Virus record (IMG/VR): IMGVR_UViG_3300021255_003103
Coordinates: 108,954 to 128,716 of that record
Direction: 5' to 3' (one strand)
DNA: 19,763 bases
DNA from: a virus
Lineage: Duplodnaviria; Heunggongvirae; Uroviricota; Caudoviricetes
This document shows positions 200 through 14,232 of the stretch, piece after piece (position 1 is the stretch's first letter; each line of letters starts with the position of its first letter). Position numbers and translations under genes: made by a program. Under the pieces are notes generated by a model. The model was not told the origin of the DNA. It saw only the letters and a program-made list of their open reading frames with translations, and made no database searches.

Positions 200-236
200 T
201 TGAATTTTTTATAAAATATTCTATATATTATTATAA
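200..236 (+). promoter_or_regulatory. Candidate phage promoter element TTGAATTTTTTATAAAATATTCTATAT
   Basis: Intergenic; matches 13703-13729 at 22 of 27 positions; also reads as TTGAAT-N18-TATATT. AT-richness lowers certainty. Confidence 0.45.
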
Positions 237-405
237 GTTAAAATCAAACAAACAGCTATTATGAATAAATTTAAATATATAAATTATTCCAGATTATCTT
301 TATAAAAATTATTTTTAATAGTAAATATCTAATTTAGGAATATTATGAGAATTTAACAAGTATTTTATAATATTTATAGTAAATAAAGTTAAATAATATA
401 TTAAA

Positions 406-1569
406 ATGAAAAAGATAACTGAAGCAAAAGCAAAAGTAAAATTTCAAATTCCTGAAAATTCAGTAAATTATATTAGTGCAGCTGAATTGAAGAAATATCT
501 TGAAGTTACAGATAGATTCATATCTGCAGAAACAAAAGAACTTATTAATTGGCTTATTGTTAATAATGATTCATATATTTCAGATCTTTCTAATGATGAA
601 GATGAAAATGCATTAGCTGGTTTCTATAAAGCTGGTGTACCTGAAAAGGATAATCTTAAGGAACTTTATAAATTACTAGGCACAATTATTAAAGCCGGAA
701 AAACAATGGAAATTCCAGTGTTTCAAACAAAAAGTGATTTTGAAGGAATAATTAATAAGAAAATTGCACCTGATGAAGTAATACTTGATTTGTCTACTGA
801 AGCAGGTCGTAATGCTACTGCTAAGAAATACGAAGCTCTTGTTCATATGATGGCAAGACAATGGAATGGTAAACTTAATCTTTCATATAATGATCTTCTT
901 AGTGTTTGTTACGAAGGACTTGCATATGCAATGAATACTTATGGAAAGAAAAATAAGAAATCAAAAGCTACTGATGAAGCAGTAAAAGGATATACATTTG
1001 GTCAATATGCTGCTTATTGTATTCGTAATCATATAACTGGCTGGGGTGTTGCTGACTCACATCTAGTGCATATTCCTAATTCACAGCAAAAGAAAGAACG
1101 TGAAGAAAAGGGACATAATACTCGTAACTTGTCAATATCTGGTGACAAGTCAGTAGGACATAGTGATGATGAGGGAAGTAAGACAATGTTTGATTTCATG
1201 GGTTCATCAACTGACGTAGAAGATGGAGTAAACGCCGAAGATCGTAAGAAACTTTGGGGTGATGTATGGAAAATTCTTTCAAAAGAATTTGACGAAAAGA
1301 CATTAGATATTTGGTGTAGTTATTGGGGTGCATATGATCATAAGAAACTTCAAAATAAAGAAATTGCAAAGAAATATAATGTTGCAAATTCAAATGTAAC
1401 ATATTATTGTCAGAAGGTCAATCAATTTATTAAGAAAAATAAAAAGATTCATGATATGTTTGTAGAATTATATGAATTACTTAAAGAGTCTATTAACGAC
1501 AAGGATCGTGAATCTTCATCAATGGGTAGAATGGTGACAAGTACTGAAAATATATATAATGAAGAATAA
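406..1569 (+). CDS. Phage RNA polymerase sigma70-family factor with extra N-terminal domain
   Basis: Region 2-like DLLSVCYEGLAYAMNTY...FGQYAAYCIRNHI..ADSHLVHIP; region 3-like SISGDKSVGHSDDEGSKTMFDF; region 4 HTH LQNKEIAKKYNVANSNVTYY; correct order and spacing versus RpoD/RpoS-type consensus. N-terminus MKKITE|A. Confidence 0.85.
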   Translation: MKKITEAKAKVKFQIPENSVNYISAAELKKYLEVTDRFISAETKELINWLIVNNDSYISDLSNDEDENALAGFYKAGVPEKDNLKELYKLLGTIIKAGKTMEIPVFQTKSDFEGIINKKIAPDEVILDLSTEAGRNATAKKYEALVHMMARQWNGKLNLSYNDLLSVCYEGLAYAMNTYGKKNKKSKATDEAVKGYTFGQYAAYCIRNHITGWGVADSHLVHIPNSQQKKEREEKGHNTRNLSISGDKSVGHSDDEGSKTMFDFMGSSTDVEDGVNAEDRKKLWGDVWKILSKEFDEKTLDIWCSYWGAYDHKKLQNKEIAKKYNVANSNVTYYCQKVNQFIKKNKKIHDMFVELYELLKESINDKDRESSSMGRMVTSTENIYNEE

Positions 1570-1856
1570 TGAAAGATATTAAAGAATTTATAAATGAAAG
1601 TTCTAATGCTTGGAAATATTTTTCAAGCGTTAGTAATTCAAGTAATTCCAGTATTAAATTATCTGGTCTTGAAAATAAAGATGCAAAATGGTTATATATT
1701 GATATAAATAACCAAATGATTACACCTTATACTGAAAATGATGTTAAACAAGCAACTAAAGATTTAGAAGATAATTATCTTGAAGAGGAATTACGTAAAT
1801 TAAAAATTGGTGATTCTTATAATGATGAAGGCAATATATATTTAAGAATAAAATAA
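1569..1856 (+). CDS. Leader-tagged hypothetical protein (putative internal head protein), 95 aa
   Basis: N-terminus MKDIKEFINE|SS; TAATG coupling to the sigma gene. Confidence 0.8.
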   Translation: MKDIKEFINESSNAWKYFSSVSNSSNSSIKLSGLENKDAKWLYIDINNQMITPYTENDVKQATKDLEDNYLEEELRKLKIGDSYNDEGNIYLRIK

Positions 1857-1868
1857 ATTTAGTAAAAT

Positions 1869-2249
1869 ATGAAAAATATTACAACATATATTAATGAATC
1901 TAATATAAATCATACAATATTCAATGCTTGTATGGAATTAGATAATAATGAGAATATATATAAAACTATATATTGGCCATTAGCACAGAATCTTATTAAG
2001 ATACATAAGTCTGGTGATTTTAATATTGAAACACTTGAAAAATCAGCGTTAGTATCAAAATTAGCATCTGCAACATTGAAAGCTGCAAAAGCAGGAACAT
2101 TATCTTCTGAAGATAGAAAACGTCTTTATAAGTTTATTGTTGGTAATCTTCTTAAAACAATAAGTAATGAAGGTGAAGAATTAACAAAAGAAGAAGAGGA
2201 TTATATGATTGAATGGGATTATAATAATTCAGATAAGTGTGGATGGTAA
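1869..2249 (+). CDS. Leader-tagged hypothetical protein, 126 aa
   Basis: N-terminus MKNITTYINE|SN; helical-looking body, no recognised family. Confidence 0.8.
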   Translation: MKNITTYINESNINHTIFNACMELDNNENIYKTIYWPLAQNLIKIHKSGDFNIETLEKSALVSKLASATLKAAKAGTLSSEDRKRLYKFIVGNLLKTISNEGEELTKEEEDYMIEWDYNNSDKCGW

Positions 2250-2260
2250 ATATATTATAA

Positions 2261-2476
2261 ATGCAAGATATTATTGAATCTATAAAGAAAACTAATTATT
2301 CTGAAATTCATGATGTTAAATGTACTTCAGAATATAAAATTGAACGCAAAGAATGCAGAATTACCTTTAAAAAAGGTGAACATTATACAGCTTCAAAAAT
2401 AAATAATAATTGGTGGCTTATTGAACAATTTGGTGTTCCAGCAAAAGACTTTAAAAAATATTTTAAAGATATATAA
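2261..2476 (+). CDS. Hypothetical protein, 71 aa, possible short leader
   Basis: N-terminus MQDIIE|S (6-residue variant); fills the gap between tagged genes. Confidence 0.7.
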   Translation: MQDIIESIKKTNYSEIHDVKCTSEYKIERKECRITFKKGEHYTASKINNNWWLIEQFGVPAKDFKKYFKDI

Positions 2477-2763
2477 TGAAACGTTTATACAAATAATTAC
2501 TGAAAATACACTGGTGAACATAAAGACAATTCATTCAAAGAAAAGATACAATATTCTAAGAAAGACTTTGACAAATTGGTAGAACTTTGGAGATATGATA
2601 AACTTCCTAAAGAAGTCATGATTCAAGTCCTTATGGCAAAGATACTAAATTTGTACTTATATATTTGATAAATCACTCACGAAAACAAATACAACATATT
2701 ACTTCATATGATATCAAGAATTAGATATTAATGACAGATGATATAAAATTATTTGAAAATTAA
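2476..2763 (+). pseudogene. Decayed paralog of 9288..9584
   Basis: Aligns along its length to 9288..9584 (e.g. shared AATATTCTAAGAAAGACTTTGACAAAT); two -1 and one +2 frameshifts, GAG>TAG and an earlier terminal TAA. Confidence 0.9.
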
Positions 2764-2765
2764 AA

Positions 2766-3104
2766 ATGAAATCTATAGTTAATTTTATAAATGAACAGCA
2801 AGATTGGTGGAGTGGAAAAGATGCTCAATTAATTGATGAAAAAACATTACTTCAGTTTGCTAATAAAGCTTTAAAAAATACTAAACTTTATGCATCAGAT
2901 TTGCAAGATGAGCTTTCACAATATGAAGATATAGATGAATTAGATAATGCATGGGAAAACAACGAATTAAAATATTGTAAGTTTGAAGATGAACTTTCTA
3001 ATTTATTAAGTAATGATACAAAATATAGTGGAAAAGAAGGAGACATTTGTGATCGTGTTTGGATTCATGCTTGGGATTTACTAGATGACCTTATTGAATT
3101 ATAA
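2766..3104 (+). CDS. Leader-tagged acidic hypothetical protein, 112 aa
   Basis: N-terminus MKSIVNFINE|QQ; 26 D/E versus 11 K/R. Confidence 0.8.
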   Translation: MKSIVNFINEQQDWWSGKDAQLIDEKTLLQFANKALKNTKLYASDLQDELSQYEDIDELDNAWENNELKYCKFEDELSNLLSNDTKYSGKEGDICDRVWIHAWDLLDDLIEL

Positions 3105-3123
3105 AAATAATGTATTTATATAA

Positions 3124-3645
3124 ATGAAATCATTTACACAATATATTAAAGAATCAGTAGAAGGCTATCGTTTAAATGATGTAGAAGCAACATATATCGT
3201 TCAGCCAGAAGAATTAGTATTACAAGCTCCAGAAACATTTCAAGAATCTGATATTCAGCAATATATGGATGATATGTGGCTTAACAAATTGCCTTCATCA
3301 CAAGATTACTCAGATAAATTTTTTGGAAAAAATAATGACAGTATATCTGATGCTCATTTTGAATATGATACATTTGAACATATTGATATTGAACCAAAAG
3401 AATATATAGAATGGGATTCAAAATATGATGTTAAGAAAACTAATGATGATATAACATTAGAATACTTCAAGATTAAAAATCTTAAATATATTATATCTTT
3501 TGATAGATTTGATATGGTTGATGTGACTGATGATACTGTTAAACAAAAACTTATTGATGTGTTTAAAGCAGCTGAATCTTCAAAAGAAAATGAATATCCA
3601 ATTGAAATAATGTTTGATGAAGATTCATTAGAATATAGAAAATAA
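3124..3645 (+). CDS. Leader-tagged acidic hypothetical protein, 173 aa
   Basis: N-terminus MKSFTQYIKE|SV, the closest match here to T4 MKTYQEFIAE. Confidence 0.8.
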   Translation: MKSFTQYIKESVEGYRLNDVEATYIVQPEELVLQAPETFQESDIQQYMDDMWLNKLPSSQDYSDKFFGKNNDSISDAHFEYDTFEHIDIEPKEYIEWDSKYDVKKTNDDITLEYFKIKNLKYIISFDRFDMVDVTDDTVKQKLIDVFKAAESSKENEYPIEIMFDEDSLEYRK

Positions 3646-3664
3646 AAAAATTTAAATATTATAT

Positions 3665-4183
3665 ATGAAAAATCTTAAAGATATATTAAGTAATAATATT
3701 ATTGAATCATTTAATAATACTGAAGAAGATTTTGATAGAATGGCACAAGGATTATTAAGATCAGCGAAAGCTTCAAAAATTAATCCTTTAGATTCTAAAG
3801 TATTAGCAAAATGCGCAGGATATATTATTGAAGCGTGGATTAAATTCGTTATTCAAATGCATGCGTGGAGACCAGGAGAACGCACATATAATGATGATGA
3901 CGATAATGAAAACTATGAACCACCAAAAATTTATGAGAATGGTGATACATGGTATGATTTTTCAATTCGTGGAGATAAATTTGAAATAAAATCATTTCAA
4001 AAAGGTAAGAAATATTCAAATACAAAATTAACTAAAGCACAAGTTGAACATAAAGATGAATTAATTTTTGTATTATGTGAATATGAAATTGAATCATCTG
4101 GTCCAAAATTAAATTTGGTTAATGTTGAATTTGTTCCTGGAAATGAAATGAAAATTTCTGGAAATAGAATGGTTAAAAAATAA
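3665..4183 (+). CDS. Leader-tagged PD-(D/E)xK (restriction endonuclease-like) nuclease, putative
   Basis: Extended leader MKNLKDILSNNIIE|S; GYIIEAWI helix Glu, WYDF...FEIKS core and LTKAQ downstream motif. Confidence 0.65.
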   Translation: MKNLKDILSNNIIESFNNTEEDFDRMAQGLLRSAKASKINPLDSKVLAKCAGYIIEAWIKFVIQMHAWRPGERTYNDDDDNENYEPPKIYENGDTWYDFSIRGDKFEIKSFQKGKKYSNTKLTKAQVEHKDELIFVLCEYEIESSGPKLNLVNVEFVPGNEMKISGNRMVKK

Positions 4184-4209
4184 AATTCAAATATTATATA
4201 AATTTAACT

Positions 4210-4239
4210 AAAGAGATTTAATTGATCAAATCTCTTTTT
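4210..4239 (+). terminator. Intrinsic terminator hairpin
   Basis: Perfect 10-bp stem AAAGAGATTT (4210-4219)/AAATCTCTTT (4228-4237), 8-nt loop, T run to 4239; 27 nt after the stop of 3665..4183. Confidence 0.7.
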
Positions 4240-4255
4240 CTATATTATATATAAT
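4238..4255 (+). promoter_or_regulatory. Candidate promoter core TTCTATATTATATATA
   Basis: Same CTATAT(A/T)-rich core as 219-236 and 13724-13736, directly after a terminator and upstream of 4292. Confidence 0.35.
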
Positions 4256-4291
4256 TAAATAAATTTATTTTTAATAAAACATTTATTGTTT

Positions 4292-4804
4292 ATGAAAGAC
4301 ATTAAAAATTTTATTAATGAATCATTACATAACAGTGATTGGCTATCTAATGCAAAGAATAATGAAGAGCCTTTTGTTAAAGCTGCTTTAGAAGAAGAAG
4401 GATGGAAAGTAACACCTGGCTCACAAAATGAAGATTTTCAAGGAATTGATTTAAAGGTTGAAAAACAAGAAACTGATGACCAATATGGTGGTAAGTTTAA
4501 TATTGATGTAAAGGGAAGTTCATCAAAAAACAAGCAATCAAAAAGTTTCTTATTTACATGTAAGAGTGCATCAGGAAAAGAATATCCATATTCTGATAAT
4601 CACTTTATTGCATTCATTAACTATGTTGACAAAACTATTTATTTAGCTGCTGATAAGGATGTTAAAGAATTAGCAAGTAAATATAAGGAATATGATAGTA
4701 AGTTTGGAGATGAATCTAAATATGTATTACTCCCAAAGAAAGAAGTACAAAAACTTGGTAGAACAATCAATCCATCTGATAAAATCAAAAATTTATTGAA
4801 ATAA
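4292..4804 (+). CDS. Leader-tagged PD-(D/E)xK-family nuclease, putative
   Basis: Start moved from TTG 4286 to ATG 4292 giving MKDIKNFINE|SL; NEEPFVKAALEEEGWKV...EDFQGIDLKV...NIDVKG fits E...(P)D...DxK. Confidence 0.7.
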   Translation: MKDIKNFINESLHNSDWLSNAKNNEEPFVKAALEEEGWKVTPGSQNEDFQGIDLKVEKQETDDQYGGKFNIDVKGSSSKNKQSKSFLFTCKSASGKEYPYSDNHFIAFINYVDKTIYLAADKDVKELASKYKEYDSKFGDESKYVLLPKKEVQKLGRTINPSDKIKNLLK

Positions 4805-4807
4805 TTT

Positions 4808-5062
4808 ATGAAAGAATTACAAAAATTTATTAGTGAATCAAGTAATACATGGGCACTAGATAAAGAGGATGAAAAAATTATATTTGGTGCTTTAGAAATT
4901 ATTGCTAAATTAGTTAAAGAGGATGAATTTTGTAAAGCATTAAATGTTGAACGATATAAATTTGATGAACTTTGGGAAGATTTTGGTGATCAATTAAATA
5001 AAAATGAAAATAAAGGAGTATCTACAATATCAAAAGCATTAAATAAAATTATAGATCAATAA
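4808..5062 (+). CDS. Leader-tagged hypothetical protein, 84 aa
   Basis: N-terminus MKELQKFISE|SS. Confidence 0.8.
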   Translation: MKELQKFISESSNTWALDKEDEKIIFGALEIIAKLVKEDEFCKALNVERYKFDELWEDFGDQLNKNENKGVSTISKALNKIIDQ

Positions 5063-5292
5063 TGAAATCATTAAGTGAAATTATAAATGAAGGTAAATCA
5101 AGTATACTTTATGTATATTTTGAATTTGGTACAAGCGGATGGGGAGCTAAGCCTATCATAAGAATCAGTGAAGATCTTAAGGAATTATTAGATAGAGGAG
5201 GAAATTCTTGGGGATTTCATATTGCTGATGGAAGATTTCATGATGATTATATAAAGAGGCTTAAGAAAAAAATTAAAGAGCTTAAAAAATGA
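5062..5292 (+). CDS. Leader-tagged hypothetical protein, 76 aa
   Basis: N-terminus MKSLSEIINE|GK; TAATG coupling. Confidence 0.8.
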   Translation: MKSLSEIINEGKSSILYVYFEFGTSGWGAKPIIRISEDLKELLDRGGNSWGFHIADGRFHDDYIKRLKKKIKELKK

Positions 5293-5642
5293 AAGACATA
5301 AAGAACTACATTTTAGAAGCAAAAAGTATTCATTCTCAATGGAAGAAACTTATTAAGAAACTTTCAAATGAAGAAATAGAATGGATTAAGAAATATGCAA
5401 TTGATGAAAAGCACAATCGAATCTACACTATGGAGGAATTAGAGCAACGTATGTGGAAAGGAGATTTGAAAGATCAATGGGATAAAATGAACAATTATAT
5501 TGTTGACAATATTCTTACAAAAGAGAATGGCATAACACAACGTGATGTTATTCATGAATATAGTCTTGCAACAACAGGAAAACAATCTATGATTGAAGTA
5601 ATTGCACAAACTATTTATATGATAAATATGGAATTAGATTAG
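5289..5642 (+). CDS. Leader-tagged hypothetical protein, 117 aa
   Basis: N-terminus MKDIKNYILE|AK; ATGA coupling. Confidence 0.8.
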   Translation: MKDIKNYILEAKSIHSQWKKLIKKLSNEEIEWIKKYAIDEKHNRIYTMEELEQRMWKGDLKDQWDKMNNYIVDNILTKENGITQRDVIHEYSLATTGKQSMIEVIAQTIYMINMELD

Positions 5643-5646
5643 TAAT

Positions 5647-6324
5647 ATGAAAGATATAATATCTTATATCAGAGAATCTGTAGAGATTGAAAAGTCTAAT
5701 AAGTTTGGTGAAAACAGTGATTATGTTACTGTTACATTAGTTCGTCGTGAAAATTTAGATTTGTCTTCAATTTCTAAAGAAGACTTTATTAAGTTTATTT
5801 TAGAGGATTATAATAAAGCAGTAAAAGAATACGATAATATTATTAAGCCATTAAATGATAAAAGACGCAAGCGATTAATTGAACAAGATGTTAACATTGC
5901 AATTAAGTTTGCGGAAAAGAAATGGAAGACTGAAAAGAAACGTGCTGAATATGTTGAAAACATTCGAAAGAATGCTGAAGCTAAAGAATGGTATATGGAT
6001 AAGGCAGATAGAATATTTTTTGACTGCCAACCAGATAAAGGAAATATGGGTATTGATCAAAATTGTATATTTGATAAAAACACAAATGAAAAACAATTAG
6101 ATCGTGCATATGATATATTAATGGAATCAAAATATTTTAAGAAGGGCACTGGTTGGGCATTTAAGTATGATGCAAGTTCAAAAGATAATTTATATTACTC
6201 TTTTAGACCTTATGTAGATATTTTACTTAATGAATCTGATAGAGCTGAACAAAGGCGTGATGAAGAAACATTAAATAAGTCAATAGAAAACTTTTATAAG
6301 AATACAAATTATTGGGGTGATTGA
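5647..6324 (+). CDS. Leader-tagged hypothetical protein, 225 aa
   Basis: N-terminus MKDIISYIRE|SV; basic central helix (KRRKRL...KKWKTEKKR); ends FYKNTNYWGD. Confidence 0.8.
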   Translation: MKDIISYIRESVEIEKSNKFGENSDYVTVTLVRRENLDLSSISKEDFIKFILEDYNKAVKEYDNIIKPLNDKRRKRLIEQDVNIAIKFAEKKWKTEKKRAEYVENIRKNAEAKEWYMDKADRIFFDCQPDKGNMGIDQNCIFDKNTNEKQLDRAYDILMESKYFKKGTGWAFKYDASSKDNLYYSFRPYVDILLNESDRAEQRRDEETLNKSIENFYKNTNYWGD

Positions 6325-6348
6325 TTTATAAATATGCAATTAGATTAA

Positions 6349-6555
6349 ATGGAAGACATAAATTATATTTTAGAATCAACACTAGATACAATGTATATTA
6401 TTGGATTTGATTATAATGAAGAAAATTCAATAGCTTCTGGATTATCTTTTGCTGAAGACTATATAGATGGCAAATATAAAGTAAATCTTTATATTGATAC
6501 AGAGAATAGTGATTATATAATATTTAAAAAATATAATGTATTTTTACAATTATGA
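6349..6555 (+). CDS. Internally deleted paralog of 6552..6851 (possibly non-functional)
   Basis: MEDI-NYILE|ST, then aligns to the C-terminal half of the next gene (GFDY.EENS..SGLSF..DY...KY.VNLYID.EN.DYI..K.YNVFLQ); lacks 31 residues. Confidence 0.8.
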   Translation: MEDINYILESTLDTMYIIGFDYNEENSIASGLSFAEDYIDGKYKVNLYIDTENSDYIIFKKYNVFLQL

Positions 6556-6851
6556 AAGACATAAAAAATTATATTTTAGAATCAACCCAAGATGAAGATC
6601 TCCAAGAAGAAGTTGGATTAGCTCTTAAGAAATTTGGTAATGTAAAACATGGATTCAAAGCTGCTAAAAAACAAGACATTATAGATGCAATGTACAAGCT
6701 TGGATTTGACTATGATGAAGAAAACTCAACCGTATCAGGATTGTCATTCACCGGAGATTATATGAATGATAAATATGAAGTAAATCTTTATATTGATAAG
6801 GAGAATGGTGATTATATAACACTTAAAAATTATAATGTATTTTTACAATAA
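6552..6851 (+). CDS. Leader-tagged hypothetical protein, 99 aa
   Basis: N-terminus MKDIKNYILE|ST. Confidence 0.85.
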   Translation: MKDIKNYILESTQDEDLQEEVGLALKKFGNVKHGFKAAKKQDIIDAMYKLGFDYDEENSTVSGLSFTGDYMNDKYEVNLYIDKENGDYITLKNYNVFLQ

Positions 6852-7096
6852 TGAAAGGTATAAATGAATATTTGATAAAAGAATCTGCTGATGAAGTAGA
6901 ACTTGTTGTACTTTCACCAGAAGAACTTCAAAAGGTTTTAGAATTTGTTAAAGGTAATGAAGACAAAGGTCTTTGCATAAGAGATACTCGTAACACTGAT
7001 GATGAATGGTATCAAATAGATGCTTGTTATTATGATGAGAGAAATGACAAAGGTCCTCGTAATTGGCCTTGGAAAAAAATAATAAGAAAAGACTAA
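6851..7096 (+). CDS. Leader-tagged hypothetical protein, 81 aa
   Basis: N-terminus MKGINEYLIKE|SA (11-residue variant shared with 8932). Confidence 0.8.
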   Translation: MKGINEYLIKESADEVELVVLSPEELQKVLEFVKGNEDKGLCIRDTRNTDDEWYQIDACYYDERNDKGPRNWPWKKIIRKD

Positions 7097-7097
7097 A

Positions 7098-7346
7098 ATG
7101 AAAAATATAAAAGATGTTATATTGAATGAAGCTGGCAAAGACTACTCAGATTATAAAGAGGAAGTAGCTGACCAATTATATGATATTTATTACAATCAAG
7201 GATTAAAAAGGTTTGTAAATGCAATGATTCATTTTATTGAAGATGGTCATTATACAAAGACTGGATGGGAATCTGATGAATTGAAAAAACTTCTTCCAAA
7301 ACTTAAGTCATTAAGGCAAGAACCAAAAGGCTTTAAATCAAAATAA
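7098..7346 (+). CDS. Leader-tagged hypothetical protein, 82 aa, paralog A
   Basis: N-terminus MKNIKDVILNE|AG; 77/82 aa identical to 8671..8919. Confidence 0.9.
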   Translation: MKNIKDVILNEAGKDYSDYKEEVADQLYDIYYNQGLKRFVNAMIHFIEDGHYTKTGWESDELKKLLPKLKSLRQEPKGFKSK

Positions 7347-7357
7347 ATGATAATATA

Positions 7358-7601
7358 ATAAAAGACTTAATTAGAACTATAACAGAATCAAAATTTAGTC
7401 CTTATTGTGGCATAAAAGATAAAGAGATTAATTCAATTAATGGTAAATTGCTGCTTAATTGTAGTGGTGATGACGATTTTAGTATTAATATATAATGATT
7501 ACGGTGATACGTATGCCAAATATCACTTATTAATAAGTACTGGACATAAAGGTGGAATATGTAGACCTAAATATTGTCCTGAATGCTGTAAAAAAATATA
7601 G
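7358..7601 (+). pseudogene. Disrupted leader-tagged Cys-rich (Zn-ribbon-like) gene
   Basis: ATA in the expected start position gives IKDLIRTITE|SKFSPYCG...; a frameshift in a TA run near 7488-7495 joins it to YNDYGDTYAKYHLLISTGHKGGICRPKYCPECCKKI-TAG. Confidence 0.7.
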
Positions 7602-7611
7602 TAAATAATTT

Positions 7612-8058
7612 ATGAAAGACATTAAAGAATATATAACAGAAGCTGTTAAATTTAATTATTGGGAAGATGTAATTCAATTTCCAGGTTATGAATTAAAAGT
7701 TCCAAAAAAATATATTAAACCAGTTCAAACAAAATATTATCGTGAAGATTTTTTAACTGATTATTTTGGATGGCTTAATCAATGGCTTGATAAGAATATT
7801 AAAAAGATAGTTCAAATAGTAATTAAAGAAAATAAAGATTTTCCAGATAAAATTTCAATTAAATTACCAAGTGAATTAGGTGGTAGTTTAAAATTTGATT
7901 GGGATTGTGGGTGGACAGATGGTGTACCTCGTGGATCTCTTCGTGATGTTGAATTAAAAGTAAATAATGTTTCTCCATCATCAATGAGTCATAGTGCATT
8001 TTATCAAGCTCAAGAAGATTTAGAACAATTTAAATTAAATAATCCAATTAAATTTTAA
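7612..8058 (+). CDS. Leader-tagged hypothetical protein, 148 aa
   Basis: N-terminus MKDIKEYITE|AV. Confidence 0.85.
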   Translation: MKDIKEYITEAVKFNYWEDVIQFPGYELKVPKKYIKPVQTKYYREDFLTDYFGWLNQWLDKNIKKIVQIVIKENKDFPDKISIKLPSELGGSLKFDWDCGWTDGVPRGSLRDVELKVNNVSPSSMSHSAFYQAQEDLEQFKLNNPIKF

Positions 8059-8061
8059 AAT

Positions 8062-8448
8062 ATGAAAGACATCAAATAATATATAATAGAAGCAGCTGGT
8101 AGTGAAATCGAGTTTCAAGGTCAGAAATTACAATTAAATCACATTATTAAAGCTAATGTACATAATGACATATATCAAGCAACTCGTGTAAAAGAGTTTA
8201 CTGATAATATGTGGAAAGATCTTAAGAAACAAGGTTGCACACACTTTATTTGTTTCCCACCTCATTATACAAACCAGGAAACGAAAAAGTTGATGAATTT
8301 CAGATAAAATGTTTATTAAAGGAAAGAAGATACTAGATACATACAAGGTGGTGAACATTATGCTATGTATGATACAAAGACCCATGAATGCGTAAATAGA
8401 GATATTATGGAAAAAAATAAAGCCTATAAAATTATAAGATTTGAATGA
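8062..8448 (+). pseudogene. Disrupted leader-tagged gene
   Basis: ATG AAA GAC ATC AAA TAA TAT ATA ATA GAA GCA = MKDIK*YIIE|A; frame then open to about 8307; further frame breaks; last segment ...YIQGGEHYAMYDTKTHECVNRDIMEKNKAYKIIRFE-TGA ends at 8448. Confidence 0.8.
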
Positions 8449-8449
8449 T

Positions 8450-8671
8450 ATGAAAGATATAAACAGATTTATTAATGAAAACGAAATACAGTTTCCACAT
8501 TGGAAAGATGAATATTGGTCTGAAAATTTAATCCATCATTTAGATTCTCTTAATAGAGAAAAGAATGAATTAGCAGAAATAATTAGTTGGTTTATTGTTA
8601 AAGCTCTTGGAGAAACTCCAAAATCTTCTTATAAAGATTTACGTAAACAAATAGATACTGCATTAGTATAA
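8450..8671 (+). CDS. Leader-tagged hypothetical protein, 73 aa
   Basis: Start moved from TTG 8441 to ATG 8450 giving MKDINRFINE|NE. Confidence 0.8.
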   Translation: MKDINRFINENEIQFPHWKDEYWSENLIHHLDSLNREKNELAEIISWFIVKALGETPKSSYKDLRKQIDTALV

Positions 8672-8919
8672 TGAAAAACATAAAAGATGTTATATTGAAT
8701 GAAGCAGGTAAAGACTATTCCGACTATAAATCTGAAGTAGTTGACCAATTATATGATATTTATTATAATCAAGGATTGAAAAGATTTGTAAATGCAATGA
8801 TTCATTTTATTGAGGACGGTCATTATGAAAAGACCGATTGGGAGTCAATTGAATTGAAGAAACTTCTTCCAAAACTTAAGTCATTAAGACAAGAACCAAA
8901 AGGCTTTAAATCAAAATAA
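8671..8919 (+). CDS. Leader-tagged hypothetical protein, 82 aa, paralog B
   Basis: MKNIKDVILNE|AG; near-identical to 7098..7346. Confidence 0.9.
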   Translation: MKNIKDVILNEAGKDYSDYKSEVVDQLYDIYYNQGLKRFVNAMIHFIEDGHYEKTDWESIELKKLLPKLKSLRQEPKGFKSK

Positions 8920-8931
8920 ATTGATAATATA

Positions 8932-9288
8932 ATGGAAAATCTTAAGGAATATTTAATTAAAGAATCTGAAGAAGAAGTATTAGTTGTTACACATGATGAA
9001 GACGATGATCTAATATGTGTAAGTGCATTTTGGTATTGGCTTCGTGAAGCAGGATTCAAACCAAGTGGAAGACGACATAATTGGTCAAAACTTGATAAGA
9101 AATATGGTAATAAATGTAGTATCATAGATGATAAAGTTGATGAAGCTATTGAATTTATTAACAAAGGTACTTCAGGATTCAAGACTAAGAATATGACAAT
9201 TAAAGTAAAATCTGAAAATGGATCTTGTAAAGTTTCATCAGATGGTGGTGATATAGCTCATATAAAATACACTAAAGACAAAGCATAA
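8932..9288 (+). CDS. Leader-tagged hypothetical protein, 118 aa
   Basis: N-terminus MENLKEYLIKE|SE. Confidence 0.8.
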   Translation: MENLKEYLIKESEEEVLVVTHDEDDDLICVSAFWYWLREAGFKPSGRRHNWSKLDKKYGNKCSIIDDKVDEAIEFINKGTSGFKTKNMTIKVKSENGSCKVSSDGGDIAHIKYTKDKA

Positions 9289-9584
9289 TGAAGAATATAA
9301 ATAATTTTATTACTGAAAAATATGCAGGCGAACGAGAAGGAAGTTCATTCAAAGATAAAGTAAAATATTCTAAGAAAGACTTTGACAAATGGGTAGAACT
9401 TTGGAGAGATGACAAACTTTCTAAAGAAGTCATGATAAGCCCTTATGGTAAAGATACTGAACTCGTATTAATATATTGGGTAAACCACTCACAAAAACAA
9501 GTACAACATATCGCATCATATAATGTAAAAGATGAGATATTGATGACAGATGATATAAAGTTATTTGGAAATGAAAAACATTAA
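9288..9584 (+). CDS. Leader-tagged hypothetical protein, 98 aa (intact copy of the 2476 pseudogene)
   Basis: N-terminus MKNINNFITE|KY. Confidence 0.85.
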   Translation: MKNINNFITEKYAGEREGSSFKDKVKYSKKDFDKWVELWRDDKLSKEVMISPYGKDTELVLIYWVNHSQKQVQHIASYNVKDEILMTDDIKLFGNEKH

Positions 9585-10458
9585 TTCATATATATTTGAA
9601 TCTCGTGAAATAGAGACTAATTCAAATAAACAACGTCGTAAGGAACTTGAAAAATGGTTGAAACATAAAAACTATGATGATTATGTTGATACATTAAATA
9701 AGATGCTTGAAGATCCAAAAGCAAAGACTTTACTTGAAGATGGATTTGGGGGAGAGCTTGGCGATACTAAACTTACATTTTCTGTTAAAGAAATTCCTGT
9801 ATCTCAATTGATGCCAACACAATCTGAGATAGATTTAGATAAGTCGCTTAAGCATGCATTAACTAAGAAAGAATCATTTGAAAAGACATTTACAAATCCT
9901 ATTGAAATAAATAAACCAATTGTTACATTCAGACAAAATTATGTAATTGATGGGCATCATACTTGGTTACAGGCAATAGCTCTTAATCCAAAAGGAAAAA
10001 TATTGGCATTCAATTATGATGGTGATATTTCTCCTATTCAGATGCTTAAAGCTGTACAAGGAACCATAGCTTCAGTTAAGGCAGACAATAATAACAATAG
10101 TGGAAAACTTCCATCAAATTCTGTAGATGGTCCTAATTTTTTTGATAAATCATTTGATGAAAAGAAAATTAGAAAATATATTAAAGATACGTTAAATGAA
10201 AATCTTATTGATTTATATATTGATAAGATTAAAGAATGCATGAATTATGATACGACAGTAGATTGGCTTACTGAACGTCTTTTAGATATTAAGTCAAATA
10301 ATTATCCATTTGATTCTGCTCCTGGTCGTGAAAACATGCCACAATTATTTAAAGGTGGCACTGATGAAGCTGATAAGAAAACATCATTACCAAATAAAGA
10401 AGGATCTGCAATGAACAAACTTAAAGATAATAAATTTATGAAGTCAGCAGTAAAATAA
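9571..10458 (+). CDS. Leader-tagged ParB/sulfiredoxin-like domain protein
   Basis: Start moved from TTG 9565 to ATG 9571 giving MKNINSYIFE|SR; IPVSQLMPTQSEID...KPIVT...YVIDGHHTWLQA fits the ParB/Srx core, with T in place of the usual R of DGHHR. Confidence 0.75.
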   Translation: MKNINSYIFESREIETNSNKQRRKELEKWLKHKNYDDYVDTLNKMLEDPKAKTLLEDGFGGELGDTKLTFSVKEIPVSQLMPTQSEIDLDKSLKHALTKKESFEKTFTNPIEINKPIVTFRQNYVIDGHHTWLQAIALNPKGKILAFNYDGDISPIQMLKAVQGTIASVKADNNNNSGKLPSNSVDGPNFFDKSFDEKKIRKYIKDTLNENLIDLYIDKIKECMNYDTTVDWLTERLLDIKSNNYPFDSAPGRENMPQLFKGGTDEADKKTSLPNKEGSAMNKLKDNKFMKSAVK

Positions 10459-10488
10459 ATTATTGTTAAATATATATATTTATGTTAA

Positions 10489-13062
10489 ATGGAATCTTTA
10501 GAAATACAACAAAATCCAGCTTTAATTGAAAATTTAAAACCTTATGATTTTTATAAATTCTATAATTATTTAAAAAATAATGAAACAGAATTTTTAAGTT
10601 TACGATTAAAAGGATGGATTCAAGTAACCAATGCATATGCAAGTGTTATGAATTATTTCAATGATAATGAAAAATTTCCAGAACTTGATGTAACATGCAC
10701 TGGTGAATATTATATTGAATTTGAAGATCCTATTACTAAAGAATGTGCTGCAAATGTATTTGGAGATAGAGTAGGCTTAACTCAGACCAGAGCAAAAATA
10801 TTCAATGGTTCAGAAATAACTAGTTCAAAAATGTCTCCTTATAATCAAATGGAATTATTTAATGAATTTGGATATTTTATTAATTTGACTCAAATACCAT
10901 ATCAATCTTTTTATAATTTTAAAAAATTAAAAAGCATACAATTACCTGAAAGTTTAACTACATTAAAAGAACAGGCATTTTATAATTGTGAATCACTTGA
11001 AAATTTTGGTCATTTAGAAAATCTTAGAACAATTGAACATCATGCATTAAGGCATACAAAATTACATGATATTCATTGTGAAAATATTTCTGTTCTTCAA
11101 AATAATACCTTAAGTGATAATACTGAATTAGAATTTGCTCATTTAGATGGAACATTTACACAATTAACACATGAAACATTCCGTGACGATAAAAATTTAA
11201 AATCAGTTACTGGTTTAAGTAATGTTACACAAATTAATTTTAAATGTTTCTTTGGATGTAATTCATTGACACATATAGATAATATTGATAAAATAACAAG
11301 AATAAATCAAGACGCCTTTAGCTATTGTTATGCATTACCGCGTCTTAATACAGATTCATTAACATATATTGACTCTTGGGGATTCTTCAATTGTACATCT
11401 TTAGAATATGTAAATACAGCAAACGTTACACATCTTGGAAAAGAGTGTTTTATGAAGTGTGCGGCATTAGAAGATTTAGATTTGTCAAATGTATTGACTA
11501 TTGATACTGGTGTTTTTTCATATTCAGGAATAAAGAATATCAATTTACCGAAGTTGACTACACCTATAAGTAATATAGGAAGTATGATTAGAGATTCACA
11601 AGTAGAAACAGTAACATTTAATGAAGAATCTTCTGGATGGCAGACACCTTATGTAATACCTAATAATTTTGCAAATAATGCAATTAAATTAAGACAAATA
11701 AACTTAGGTAATTGTTATCAGATTAATTCAGATGCATTTGCAGGATGTAGTTCATTAATATCTATTGGAGAACAACCTGAAACACCTATATTAACAAAAT
11801 TAAATGGTACATCAATATTTAATGGCTGTACAAATTTAGATCATATTGATATATCATTAGTTGCTGAAATACCAGGTTCAACTTTTTATAGATGTAAACA
11901 TTTAAAAAGTCTTGGTAATAATAATGTATTGTCTAATGTTGAATATATAAGACATGATGCATTTCACGAATTTGGTACTTCAGGGGAAGAAGGATTAGGT
12001 GAAATTTCATTTCCAAATTGTAGATTAATCGAAAATGCAGTATTTAAGGATAGCTACGGTATAACAAAAATAAACTTTGGAAATCTTCAAGAAATCAAAT
12101 ATGAAGCATTTTGTCGTTGCAATGATCTTGAATATATTACTGGACTAGATAATGTTACAATATGTAGACATGATGTATTTTTGCAATGTACAAAACTTAA
12201 AGAAGTTGAAATGCTTAATGTTGAACAATTTATACATGATGGAAGGGGTGGTAGTAATCAATTTTATGGATGCACAGGATTGGAAAATGTTAATTTACCT
12301 AAACTTAAAACAGTTAGTGGTGATCGAACATTTAGCAATTGTAACATAACTGGATTATTAAATTTGCCATTACTTGAAGATACGGGTGGTCAGTACGCAT
12401 TTCAGTCAGCAAAAATAAAGAAAATCAATTTACATAATTGTAAGAAATTATATCAAAATCAATTTAATAATAATACTTTACTTGAAGAAATTGATTTATC
12501 ATCATGTGAACAATTTACAGGTGGTTCAGTATTTTATAATTGTACTGCATTACAAAGTATTGAATTACCTGCATTAACTGGAGATATTCCTCTTAATTGT
12601 TTCAGATATTGTAATTCGCTTACAAGTATTACATTTGGTACTGGTAAGATTAGATTAGTAGATGAATCTATTAGCGATAACCCAGAGTTAAAAACAATTA
12701 ATTTAAATAATTGTACTTATATTGGTGTACATGCAATGATGAACTGTACTAAGCTTGAAACAATTGGAGAATTCAGCGATGAATTAACATATATAGGAAT
12801 GGGAGCGTTTGAAAACTGTTCTAAATTAACAGGTAATATTACAATTCCTGCAAGTGTTACAACTATAGGATATAAAGCATTCTATAATTGTGGATCTATT
12901 ACATCAATTACAATGTTAGCGACAACTCCGCCACAAATGGATAATGAATCATTTAATGGAGCATTAACATATCCTATTTATGTACCTGCAGGTTCTGTTG
13001 ATGCATATAAAACAGCAAATAATTGGAAGAATATTGCTAGTAGAATATTTGCAGCATCATAA
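10489..13062 (+). CDS. BspA-type (TpLRR/LRR_5) leucine-rich repeat protein, 857 aa
   Basis: Roughly 30 repeats of about 23 aa (LxxIxxxAFxxCxxL); N-cap IEFEDPITKECAANVFGD...FNEFGYF and C-cap TPP...IYVPAGSVDAYKTANNW resemble Bacteroidales BspA proteins; no signal peptide or leader seen. Confidence 0.92.
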   Translation: MESLEIQQNPALIENLKPYDFYKFYNYLKNNETEFLSLRLKGWIQVTNAYASVMNYFNDNEKFPELDVTCTGEYYIEFEDPITKECAANVFGDRVGLTQTRAKIFNGSEITSSKMSPYNQMELFNEFGYFINLTQIPYQSFYNFKKLKSIQLPESLTTLKEQAFYNCESLENFGHLENLRTIEHHALRHTKLHDIHCENISVLQNNTLSDNTELEFAHLDGTFTQLTHETFRDDKNLKSVTGLSNVTQINFKCFFGCNSLTHIDNIDKITRINQDAFSYCYALPRLNTDSLTYIDSWGFFNCTSLEYVNTANVTHLGKECFMKCAALEDLDLSNVLTIDTGVFSYSGIKNINLPKLTTPISNIGSMIRDSQVETVTFNEESSGWQTPYVIPNNFANNAIKLRQINLGNCYQINSDAFAGCSSLISIGEQPETPILTKLNGTSIFNGCTNLDHIDISLVAEIPGSTFYRCKHLKSLGNNNVLSNVEYIRHDAFHEFGTSGEEGLGEISFPNCRLIENAVFKDSYGITKINFGNLQEIKYEAFCRCNDLEYITGLDNVTICRHDVFLQCTKLKEVEMLNVEQFIHDGRGGSNQFYGCTGLENVNLPKLKTVSGDRTFSNCNITGLLNLPLLEDTGGQYAFQSAKIKKINLHNCKKLYQNQFNNNTLLEEIDLSSCEQFTGGSVFYNCTALQSIELPALTGDIPLNCFRYCNSLTSITFGTGKIRLVDESISDNPELKTINLNNCTYIGVHAMMNCTKLETIGEFSDELTYIGMGAFENCSKLTGNITIPASVTTIGYKAFYNCGSITSITMLATTPPQMDNESFNGALTYPIYVPAGSVDAYKTANNWKNIASRIFAAS

Positions 13063-13078
13063 ATATATTTTATTTAAC

Positions 13079-13390
13079 ATGATAAATATAGTTGAATATT
13101 TAAAGACAAATGATAAAGAATTCAATATTGATGGATTTAAGATAATTGACATGGGAGATGACTCAGTTGTTTCTAATTGGGGTGAAGGTGATTTATTAAA
13201 AGCTATCAATGAATTAAAGAAACTTAAAGAAGAAGCAAATAATAAAGAATATTGGTTAATTGCAACAACTAATAATGGATTCTATGATTTAGATGATCCT
13301 GGTAATTATTTAGTATTGAAATCTTATGAATATAATGAAAAGGATGATTATTATGGAATCAATCCAAAATATAATGAATATTTAAAATAA
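13079..13390 (+). CDS. Hypothetical protein, 103 aa, degenerate leader
   Basis: Start moved from 12980 (82-nt overlap with the LRR gene) to ATG 13079: MINIVEYLKTND, leader-like but without the cleavage Glu. Confidence 0.75.
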   Translation: MINIVEYLKTNDKEFNIDGFKIIDMGDDSVVSNWGEGDLLKAINELKKLKEEANNKEYWLIATTNNGFYDLDDPGNYLVLKSYEYNEKDDYYGINPKYNEYLK

Positions 13391-13393
13391 ATT

Positions 13394-13687
13394 ATGAAAG
13401 ATATTAAAAATTTTATTTTAGAATCATCTCAAGATGACCTTGAAGATATGACAAATGATTTATCAGAATGGTGGGATGAACATTGTGTTGAAGATGGATA
13501 TAATAGCCGTCATGAATTTATAGATAATATGAAAGCAATGGCAGATAAAGAAAATGATCCATTGGTTGATGACGCTTTTGATTATCTTGAAAATGAATGC
13601 GAATGGGATCATAAAGATATTGAACGCTGGAAAGATGATCTTATAGAAGTATTATCACAATGGGCAAAAGATCAATTAAGTTATTAA
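13394..13687 (+). CDS. Leader-tagged highly acidic protein, 97 aa; last member of the array
   Basis: MKDIKNFILE|SS; 30 D/E, 9 K/R, 5 Trp. Confidence 0.85.
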   Translation: MKDIKNFILESSQDDLEDMTNDLSEWWDEHCVEDGYNSRHEFIDNMKAMADKENDPLVDDAFDYLENECEWDHKDIERWKDDLIEVLSQWAKDQLSY

Positions 13688-13702: not shown

Positions 13703-13736
13703 TTTAATTTTTTATAAAGATTACTATATTATTTAT
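13703..13736 (+). promoter_or_regulatory. Second copy of the candidate promoter element
   Basis: TTTAATTTTTTATAAAGATTACTATAT, 22/27 identical to 200-226. Confidence 0.45.
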
Positions 13737-13763
13737 GTATGGATGGTAACATAAAACATTCAT

Positions 13764-13771
13764 TATATTTG
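13764..13771 (+). promoter_or_regulatory. Bacteroidota sigma-A -7 element (TAnnTTTG)
   Basis: TATATTTG ends 24 nt upstream of ATG 13795, followed by an A/T-rich leader; no clear -33 TTTG. Confidence 0.5.
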
Positions 13772-13794
13772 TAATCAATAAAAAATTATTTAAT

Positions 13795-14232
13795 ATGATG
13801 AATATGTATACAACAGAGAGTTTTTGTGCCGGGTTAATTCAGTCAATTATCAATTATATGACTGAGAATAAAGTCGATGTATTTCCTCTTGAGTTTCTTG
13901 CAAATTGAAATGATTATAGTTCATGTGAGGCTGCTCGAAATTTTTACAATCATTGCATCAAGTATTTCACTGTTGTAAACGGAGAACTTCATGTTCATCT
14001 TCATTATAATTCAACGAATAAAGACTATGAAAATATTGTTTCAGAAAAACCTTGGTCTTGGCCCGACACTGAACATTATTCATTTCATTCTGCTGATTTA
14101 GTTGCTCTTATTCAGATAGCTTACGATACAATTGGTTCATCTCATTTTAAGGGTCGCGGAGTTGATAGCTGGGATTCTTCTGAAATTGATGAGCTTGAGG
14201 CAGAATATGAAGCTCGTCGAAACGAAGTTTAA
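13795..14232 (+). pseudogene. 145-codon gene with one in-frame TGA (13906-13908)
   Basis: MMNMYTTESFCAGLIQSIINYMTENKVDVFPLEFLAN*NDYSSCEAARNFYNH...DELEAEYEARRNEV-TAA; single frame; missed by the ORF track. Confidence 0.8.

Follow-up and report, generated by a model that had tools for sequence, protein, structure and literature searches.

A divergent phage sigma factor whose family carries a leader resembling the T4 capsid-targeting sequence is a plausible virion-packaged protein

Introduction

Could a phage carry a sigma factor in its capsid and eject it into the host together with its DNA? The question is raised by a gene near the start of the stretch of DNA analysed here, which comes from an uncultured tailed phage (the window; 19,763 nt, G+C content 26%). 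This open reading frame (406–1569, + strand) encodes 387 amino acids. A sequence-only reading had described its product as a sigma70-family factor that begins with a cleavable leader like that of the T4 protein Alt, and had proposed that the protein may be packaged in the virion and injected.

The premise about T4 is sound. In the T4 record, Alt is annotated as a component of the capsid that enters the host with the DNA, and the protein starts with MELITE; T4 gp24 starts with MAKINELLRE|S. Alt is processed by the gp21 protease, and the T4 capsid-targeting sequence (CTS) is enough to load foreign proteins (PMC5694885; PMC3012670). We examined the sigma protein, its homologs, its gene neighbourhood, its upstream motifs and the head-assembly genes of its relatives.

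Results

Identity and domain layout of the sigma factor

The gene product matches PHROG 351 ('RNA polymerase sigma factor') over residues 131–332 (E = 1.5e-15). Pfam returned no sigma match for the protein itself; its Sigma70_r2 family was reached by 14 of 40 homologs, and the profile of the protein family matches region 2 of PDB chains of SigA, RpoS and RpoD (best E = 1.7e-5). The top Foldseek and VIA matches of the AF2 model (mean pLDDT 77) are sigma factors throughout. In the VIA alignments of this model, residues 119–357 align with residues 112–613 of RpoD, and residues 119–357/361 also align with sigmaS (73–329) and with sigma28. The sigma2 domain (residues 120–221) superposes on known sigma2 domains with Z ~10, an rmsd of 2–3 Å and 19–27% identity. 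Region 4 is seen in the predicted structure only, where the VIA alignments reach residues 350–361 (RpoD to 613, sigmaS to 329), and there is a weak helix-turn-helix match at residues 315–338 (GerE, E = 0.034). Region 3 is spanned by the full-length alignments.

Because profile matches and structural alignments to sigma factors agree, regions 1.2, 2 and 4 are confirmed, whereas region 3 is only plausible since the model has pLDDT <50 at residues 243–273. Regions 2 and 4 of the earlier assignment therefore stand, and its region 3 is held with less assurance. It is near certain that the protein is a divergent sigma70-family factor, and it is predicted to bind the host core RNA polymerase and to direct promoter-specific initiation. 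We found 138 homologs, almost all 380–400 aa long, whose contigs reach 442 kb. Among GenBank phages, neither the window nor the sigma protein had a match in DNA or protein searches.

The translated protein starts with MKKITEAKAK, as had been read. Its first six residues (MKKITE; 406–423, +) form a leader with a candidate prohead-protease cut after E6 and before A7, assigned from family conservation and the family tree; residues 1–9 are disordered in the AF2 model (pLDDT <50). A Lys-rich linker follows (residues 7–17; 424–456, +), whose alignment columns are variable and gapped. The sequence-only reading had left some 130 N-terminal residues unrecognised and had suggested structure prediction as a check. 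The prediction yields an all-helical, family-specific domain (residues 18–118; 457–759, +; pLDDT ~90) with no convincing fold match in three libraries (best E 0.9 against the PDB with Foldseek, best Z 3.6 VIA-wide, TM ≤0.40 in the Atlas). Sequence searches with this domain alone returned only fragments of the same sigma family, to which it is confined; a language-model lead to sigma region 1.1 is weak (score 0.85, below the reliable range). Sigma regions 1.2 to 4.2 occupy residues 119–361 (760–1488, +), as placed by the VIA alignment and the region 2 profile. At the end of region 4 lies ELLKE|S (residues 357–362; 1474–1491, +), a candidate second cut site located by the homolog alignment and VIA. 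The protein closes with a poorly conserved, acidic tail of 26 aa (residues 362–387; 1489–1566, +), of which residues 370–387 have pLDDT <50.

A tagged gene array follows the sigma gene

The stop codon of the sigma gene overlaps the start codon of the next gene in a TAATG (1565–1571, +), so the coupling that had been described between the sigma gene and the first tagged gene (1569–1856; N-terminus MKDIKEFINES) is present. It is not universal: in one near-complete relative (G001, 376 kb), the two genes are separated by a 108-nt gap with a promoter-like motif. The array extends over 1569–13687 (+) and comprises about 20 genes whose products start with a 10–11-aa tag, MK-x-I-x-x-(F/Y)-I-x-E|(S/A). 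No gene of the window from 14323 onward carries the tag. A gene for a 71-aa protein (2261–2476, +) has the shorter leader MQDIIE|S, as noticed before, and its orthologs start with MKDIIES and MKNIIES.

One tagged gene is distinguished by its conservation. It encodes a 173-aa protein (3124–3645, +) with 35–82% identity among relatives, and its tag residues M1, K2, I8 and E10 are invariant. In the relatives, the same two minus-strand genes always precede the sigma gene and at least one tagged gene comes after it; the gene for the 173-aa protein is the one tagged gene that still adjoins the sigma gene in distant relatives, including those without an array. The protein has no Pfam family and no informative Atlas match. 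Its position suggests that it may be a functional partner of the sigma factor.

Several other features of the array deserve record. An untagged 857-aa BspA-type leucine-rich-repeat protein is encoded inside it (10489–13062, +; Pfam LRR_5, E = 6e-90, 6 copies), and a relative (L004) has two such genes at the same place, encoding 857 and 694 aa. Two near-identical 82-aa tagged genes (7098–7346 and 8671–8919, +) differ by about 6 residues, and a second tagged paralog pair (6349–6555 and 6552–6851) has the C-terminal halves in common; both pairs are recent duplications within the array. A tagged 295-aa protein (9571–10458, +) has a weak match to ParB-like nucleases (ParBc_2, E = 0.009; PHROG 2859, E = 6e-9) and same-length orthologs in G001, L004 and others, which makes it a candidate packaged nuclease or DNA-binding protein.

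Conservation of the leader across the sigma family

We defined the leader pattern as M, 1–10 residues, hydrophobic-x-E and then A, S or G within the first 11 residues, and applied it to 116 full-length homologs. The pattern is present in 85 homologs, compared to 3.7% of control windows, with leaders of 6 aa (n = 23), 9 aa (n = 48) or 10 aa (n = 14). Another 13 homologs have hydrophobic-x-E followed by a different P1' residue, and 18 have no motif. Judged from these alignments, the family-wide pattern is not due to chance. The six residues of the window's protein, taken alone, are weak evidence because 3.7% of control windows contain the pattern.

We also scored the leaders with a fixed-length matrix built from the tags of the window's array. 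Scores above 5 bits were obtained for 10 of 116 sigma leaders versus 3 of 1919 internal control windows. Most sigma leaders are one residue shorter than the tag and misalign on this matrix, which is why the pattern anchored on the cut site was added. Compared to the array tags, the sigma leaders have kept I/L/F/V at P3 and A/S/G at P1', while P4 is usually polar instead of F or Y. The window's MKKITE has a negative matrix score; it agrees with the tag in the first half alone (MK-x-I-x-E) and is without the aromatic-hydrophobic pair (F/Y-I), the most conserved part of the array tag. At the other end of the range, the sigma leader of a relative (L007), MKKLSEFVAE|A, is a near-copy of the T4 CTS, MKTYQEFIAE (bioRxiv 10.1101/2021.01.19.427310).

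A family tree, built without the leader columns, orders these forms. The long (9–10-aa) leader is present in every deep branch, while the 6-aa leader is restricted to one clade of 46 rows that includes the window's protein; consequently, the long leader is ancestral and the window's leader is derived. This tree gives good support to a T4-CTS-like leader as the ancestral state of the sigma family. Within the window's clade, E6 has changed to D at least five times independently, and in one relative (L049) the sigma leader has D while all array tags keep E. Cleavage after Glu is therefore not under strict selection in this clade. The proposed check, conservation of (I/L)xE at the leader's end among homologs, is mostly favourable (85 of 116 with A/S/G and 13 more with hydrophobic-x-E), but for these changes in the window's own clade.

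The coreless leader of the window, the recurrent E-to-D changes and the homologs that lack the motif would all be expected if the protein were an ordinary intracellular sigma factor. Its gene would be transcribed early by the host holoenzyme, from an early-class promoter upstream, and the product would then move the host polymerase on to its own promoter and to other middle or late (structural-class) ones, with no meaningful loading into capsids. MKKITE would then be a tag remnant that has decayed or never functioned, perhaps gained by in-frame recombination with the neighbouring tagged cassettes. We regard this account as possible, though short of probable. It does not readily explain why 73% of homologs, some as distant as 42% identity, retain the leader motif next to a linker that is free to vary. 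Nor does it fit with a long, tag-like leader that is ancestral rather than a product of recent recombination, or with a shortening to six residues that still yielded hydrophobic-x-E before a small residue. Moreover, a functional T4 CTS loads any protein fused to it (PMC5694885), so a working leader would mean packaging whatever the leader's origin.

A second candidate cut site at the end of the sigma core

Hydrophobic-x-E-[ASG] occurs just twice in the protein, with Glu at residues 6 and 361. The second is the ELLKE|S to which the sequence-only reading had pointed in the C-terminal tail, with its last Glu at residue 361. This Glu is kept in 39 of 40 aligned homologs, with C, S or A at P1' in 38 and M, V or L at P3 in 36. 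In the structural alignment, the last residue of RpoD falls at about residues 357–361, and the two candidate cuts thus exactly flank the sigma core together with the N-terminal domain. Cleavage at both sites would strip the leader and the tail and leave the N-terminal domain joined to the sigma core. The alignment is suggestive only in this respect, because the conservation of E361 could have other causes.

One such cause would be that the leader, and perhaps the tail, serve a different purpose. By analogy with pro-sigmaE and pro-sigmaK, or with FlgM and sigma28, the protein could be a pro-sigma switched by proteolysis coupled to head assembly; alternatively, the leader could be a shared non-capsid signal for localisation, stability or translation. 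The flanking arrangement of the only two sites, the near-invariance of E361 and the retention of an acidic residue 6 (E or D) even where strict Glu is lost are in line with such roles. We nevertheless judge them improbable. Prohead proteases of the T4 type work within the assembled prohead (PMC5694885), and a substrate would therefore already be encapsidated when cut. In addition, the tag matches the T4 CTS, the cut rule matches capsid and scaffold sites, and the tagged genes follow the promoter class of the head genes, which makes loading a better fit than a signal of general use in the cytoplasm.

Two classes of promoter-like motif upstream of the sigma gene

An early-class promoter-like element lies at 200–236 (+) and consists of TTGAAT, a spacer and TCTATATATTAT. 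It is a variant of the motif of G001 (TTTGAATTTTT, spacer, CTATATTATATTTG), which has about 48 non-coding copies located 20–30 nt before small genes. By strand, the non-coding copies in this 376-kb genome number 48 on the + strand and 1 on the − strand (for example, L027:4089–4118); one copy is 206 nt before the sigma ortholog and another precedes a second sigma gene. A generic sigma70 promoter scan lists 200–229 at 9 of 12 matches, which is no evidence because the scan gives fewer matches than shuffles do. The motif holds a TTGAAT/TATATT-type pair and a TTTG...TAnnTTTG pair, the latter reminiscent of Bacteroidota promoters. A variant with TTTAAT in place of TTGAAT occurs at 13703–13736 (+); after it come about 490 nt of relatively G+C-rich DNA with no open reading frame of ≥40 aa (the whole spanning 13703–14232), which may be a decayed gene.

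The second class is found closer to the sigma gene. A block at 309–337 (+), TTATTTTTAATAG...ATCTAATTTAGG, is invariant in 5 relatives amid otherwise diverged intergenic DNA and is also present in L049. It is a promoter-like motif of the structural-gene class, located 88–120 nt upstream of the sigma gene and conserved in 6 relatives. The G001 form of the motif, TTATTTTTA(T/A)(A/T)TAAA, precedes the genes for the protease, the capsid protein, the sheath and giant structural proteins on both strands, and it also precedes the heads of tagged arrays. The 9-mer TTATTTTTA alone is no more frequent than base composition predicts, and we gave weight only to the motif's orientation bias (22:6 in G001), its extended form and its association with a gene class.

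The class association can be counted. The nearest upstream motif in G001 is of the structural class for 29 tagged genes and of the early class for 11, versus 71 and 250 untagged genes, respectively (odds ratio 9.3, P = 4e-10, a value that overstates the support because genes within one array are not independent). Most of the 11 early-class tagged genes are chance matches to the loose tag pattern. At the level of arrays, about 5 have the structural class and 0 the early class.

By association with the conserved structural-class motif upstream, the sigma factor may be expressed late, together with the head genes. The same motif also fits positive autoregulation of an intracellular late sigma factor, and the early-class element some 170–206 nt upstream of the sigma start, in both the window and the relatives, likewise favours a sigma factor that is made and used during infection.

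Head-assembly machinery and polymerase genes in relatives

Evidence on the protease and the capsid is drawn from the genomes of relatives rather than from the window's own genome, and mainly from the near-complete G001 and G002 (410 kb). Both encode a protein that matches the Pfam family of T4-type prohead proteases (Peptidase_S77) above the curated cut-off, and both encode a gp23-type capsid protein. On a contig with a 94%-identical sigma factor, the protease-scaffold, capsid and sheath genes are about 15 kb away. The G001 protease is fused to a scaffold-like C-terminal half of about 340 aa (G001 212552–214165, equal to L032:12552–14165), and L052:3001–4686 is a further fusion of this type. 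In addition to its Peptidase_S77 match, the fusion has a weak Peptidase_S80 match.

The cut rule recurs in these proteins. The G001 protease-scaffold protein contains 18 hydrophobic-x-E-[ASG] sites versus 2.1 expected (P = 1e-11), making it the most site-rich protein of the G001 proteome. The gp23-type capsid proteins of three genomes share a conserved IHE|S at residue 41.

We detected no multisubunit phage RNA polymerase in G001 or G002. Each relative genome has a second sigma factor without a leader, and this absence argues against reading the first factor's leader as incidental to an intracellular sigma. In G001, the second sigma gene (243584–244447; L034:3584–4447; Sigma70_r2, E = 3e-7) is located some 15 kb downstream from its tagged counterpart, L049:18277–19497 is another untagged second sigma gene, and by synteny the window's own copy should lie just past its 3' end. 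BLAST did not detect the two sigma factors of one genome as paralogs, and a single-sequence search, a weak test, found no T4 gp55 homolog in G001 or G002.

With a gp23-type capsid, no polymerase and phage-encoded sigma factors in its relatives, the phage is of the functional type called group 2. Group 2 jumbo phages have gp23-type capsids, no phage RNA polymerase and RpoD-like sigma factors through which the host core enzyme is recruited (Iyer et al. 2021, PMC7824862). No packaging of those sigma factors is reported (PMC7824862), which speaks for an ordinary intracellular role here as well.

Discussion

These observations are consistent with a mechanism whereby the sigma factor is packaged and ejected with the phage DNA, a plausible proposal and the likeliest of the readings weighed here, with chances that we put as even. 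The sigma factor would be made late in infection, from promoters of the head-gene class, and it would work with the host core RNA polymerase. Much as the T4 CTS directs Alt and the internal proteins, its short N-terminal leader would bring it into the scaffold core while the prohead assembles. Trimming by the T4-type (S77) prohead protease would follow after Glu6, and possibly again after Glu361. Ejected with the DNA, the mature sigma factor would turn the host polymerase to phage promoters ahead of all phage gene expression. We infer each of these steps, from loading and cleavage to ejection and the promoters that the sigma factor reads.

The mechanism can be extended to a closed circuit carried by the virion. 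The injected sigma factor, trimmed after both E6 and E361, would read the ~45 very uniform early-class promoters; these would yield the untagged second sigma factor, which would read the structural-class promoters, from which the tagged sigma factor and the cargo array would be remade for the progeny. Since the injected sigma factor itself would read the early promoters, the first round of transcription would be independent of host sigma. We consider the complete circuit unlikely.

The packaging proposal of the sequence-only reading thus emerges with evidence on both sides. Conservation of the leader, its ancestral T4-CTS-like form, the head-assembly machinery of the relatives and the head-gene promoter motif favour it, whereas the shortened, coreless leader of the window, the changes from E to D and the early-class promoter upstream count against it.

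Comparison with T4 is the closest. Like the T4 internal proteins IPI–III and Alt, the proteins studied here have a short N-terminal leader that starts with MK or ME and ends in (I/L)-x-E before a small residue. Also shared are an S77-type protease (gp21 in T4) and, cut at a propeptide site, a gp23-type capsid protein, both seen here in the relatives, as well as tagged genes in hypervariable arrays, as with the T4 internal proteins. Alt is itself a packaged and injected modifier of the host RNA polymerase with a 6-residue leader, and MKKITE is of the same type as its MELITE. Unlike T4, the candidate cargo is a sigma factor, the genome is ~0.4 Mb, the relatives' protease is fused to a scaffold-like half and the window's leader is without the tag core. 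A sigma factor as a candidate packaged protein would plausibly be new relative to T4-type cargo, as the literature searched yielded no report of a phage sigma factor that is packaged in, or associated with, the virion.

Sigma factors with a cleavable N-terminus have a cellular precedent. In Bacillus, the N-terminal pro-peptides of pro-sigmaE and pro-sigmaK are removed by two membrane proteases, SpoIIGA and SpoIVFB, which activates the sigma factor in the cell. The phage protein resembles them in combining a sigma factor and an N-terminal pro-peptide with a dedicated, here candidate, protease; it differs in that this protease acts inside the prohead and in that the leader resembles a loading tag.

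Head-carried transcription machinery also has precedents. The virion RNA polymerase of N4 and the five-subunit virion RNA polymerases of phiKZ and SPN3US travel in the head and are ejected from it, which lets early genes start at once. If the sigma factor is packaged, it would share this delivery of transcription machinery from the head. The difference is that those phages eject a complete polymerase and need no host enzyme, while the present phage would supply the specificity subunit alone and rely on the host core. The head proteins of SPN3US and phiKZ are processed after Glu by a gp21-like protease (PMC5694885).

The group 2 jumbo phages share the gp23-type capsid, the lack of a detected polymerase and phage sigma70-like factors. 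Unlike their sigma factors, the present family adds a leader of the cleavable type, an N-terminal domain of its own of 100 aa and a C-terminal tail, and the window's sigma gene heads an array of tagged genes.

Two ways are known for phages to seize transcription at time zero: packaged RNA polymerases, as in N4 and phiKZ, and packaged polymerase modifiers, as with T4 Alt. If the proposed mechanism is true, a packaged sigma factor would be a third, in which the promoter-specificity subunit alone is delivered and the host core enzyme is reprogrammed at once. It would help to explain how infection starts in very large phages without a polymerase of their own. It would also mean that a T4-style loading tag can be read from sequence, making the ejected proteome of uncultured phages predictable.
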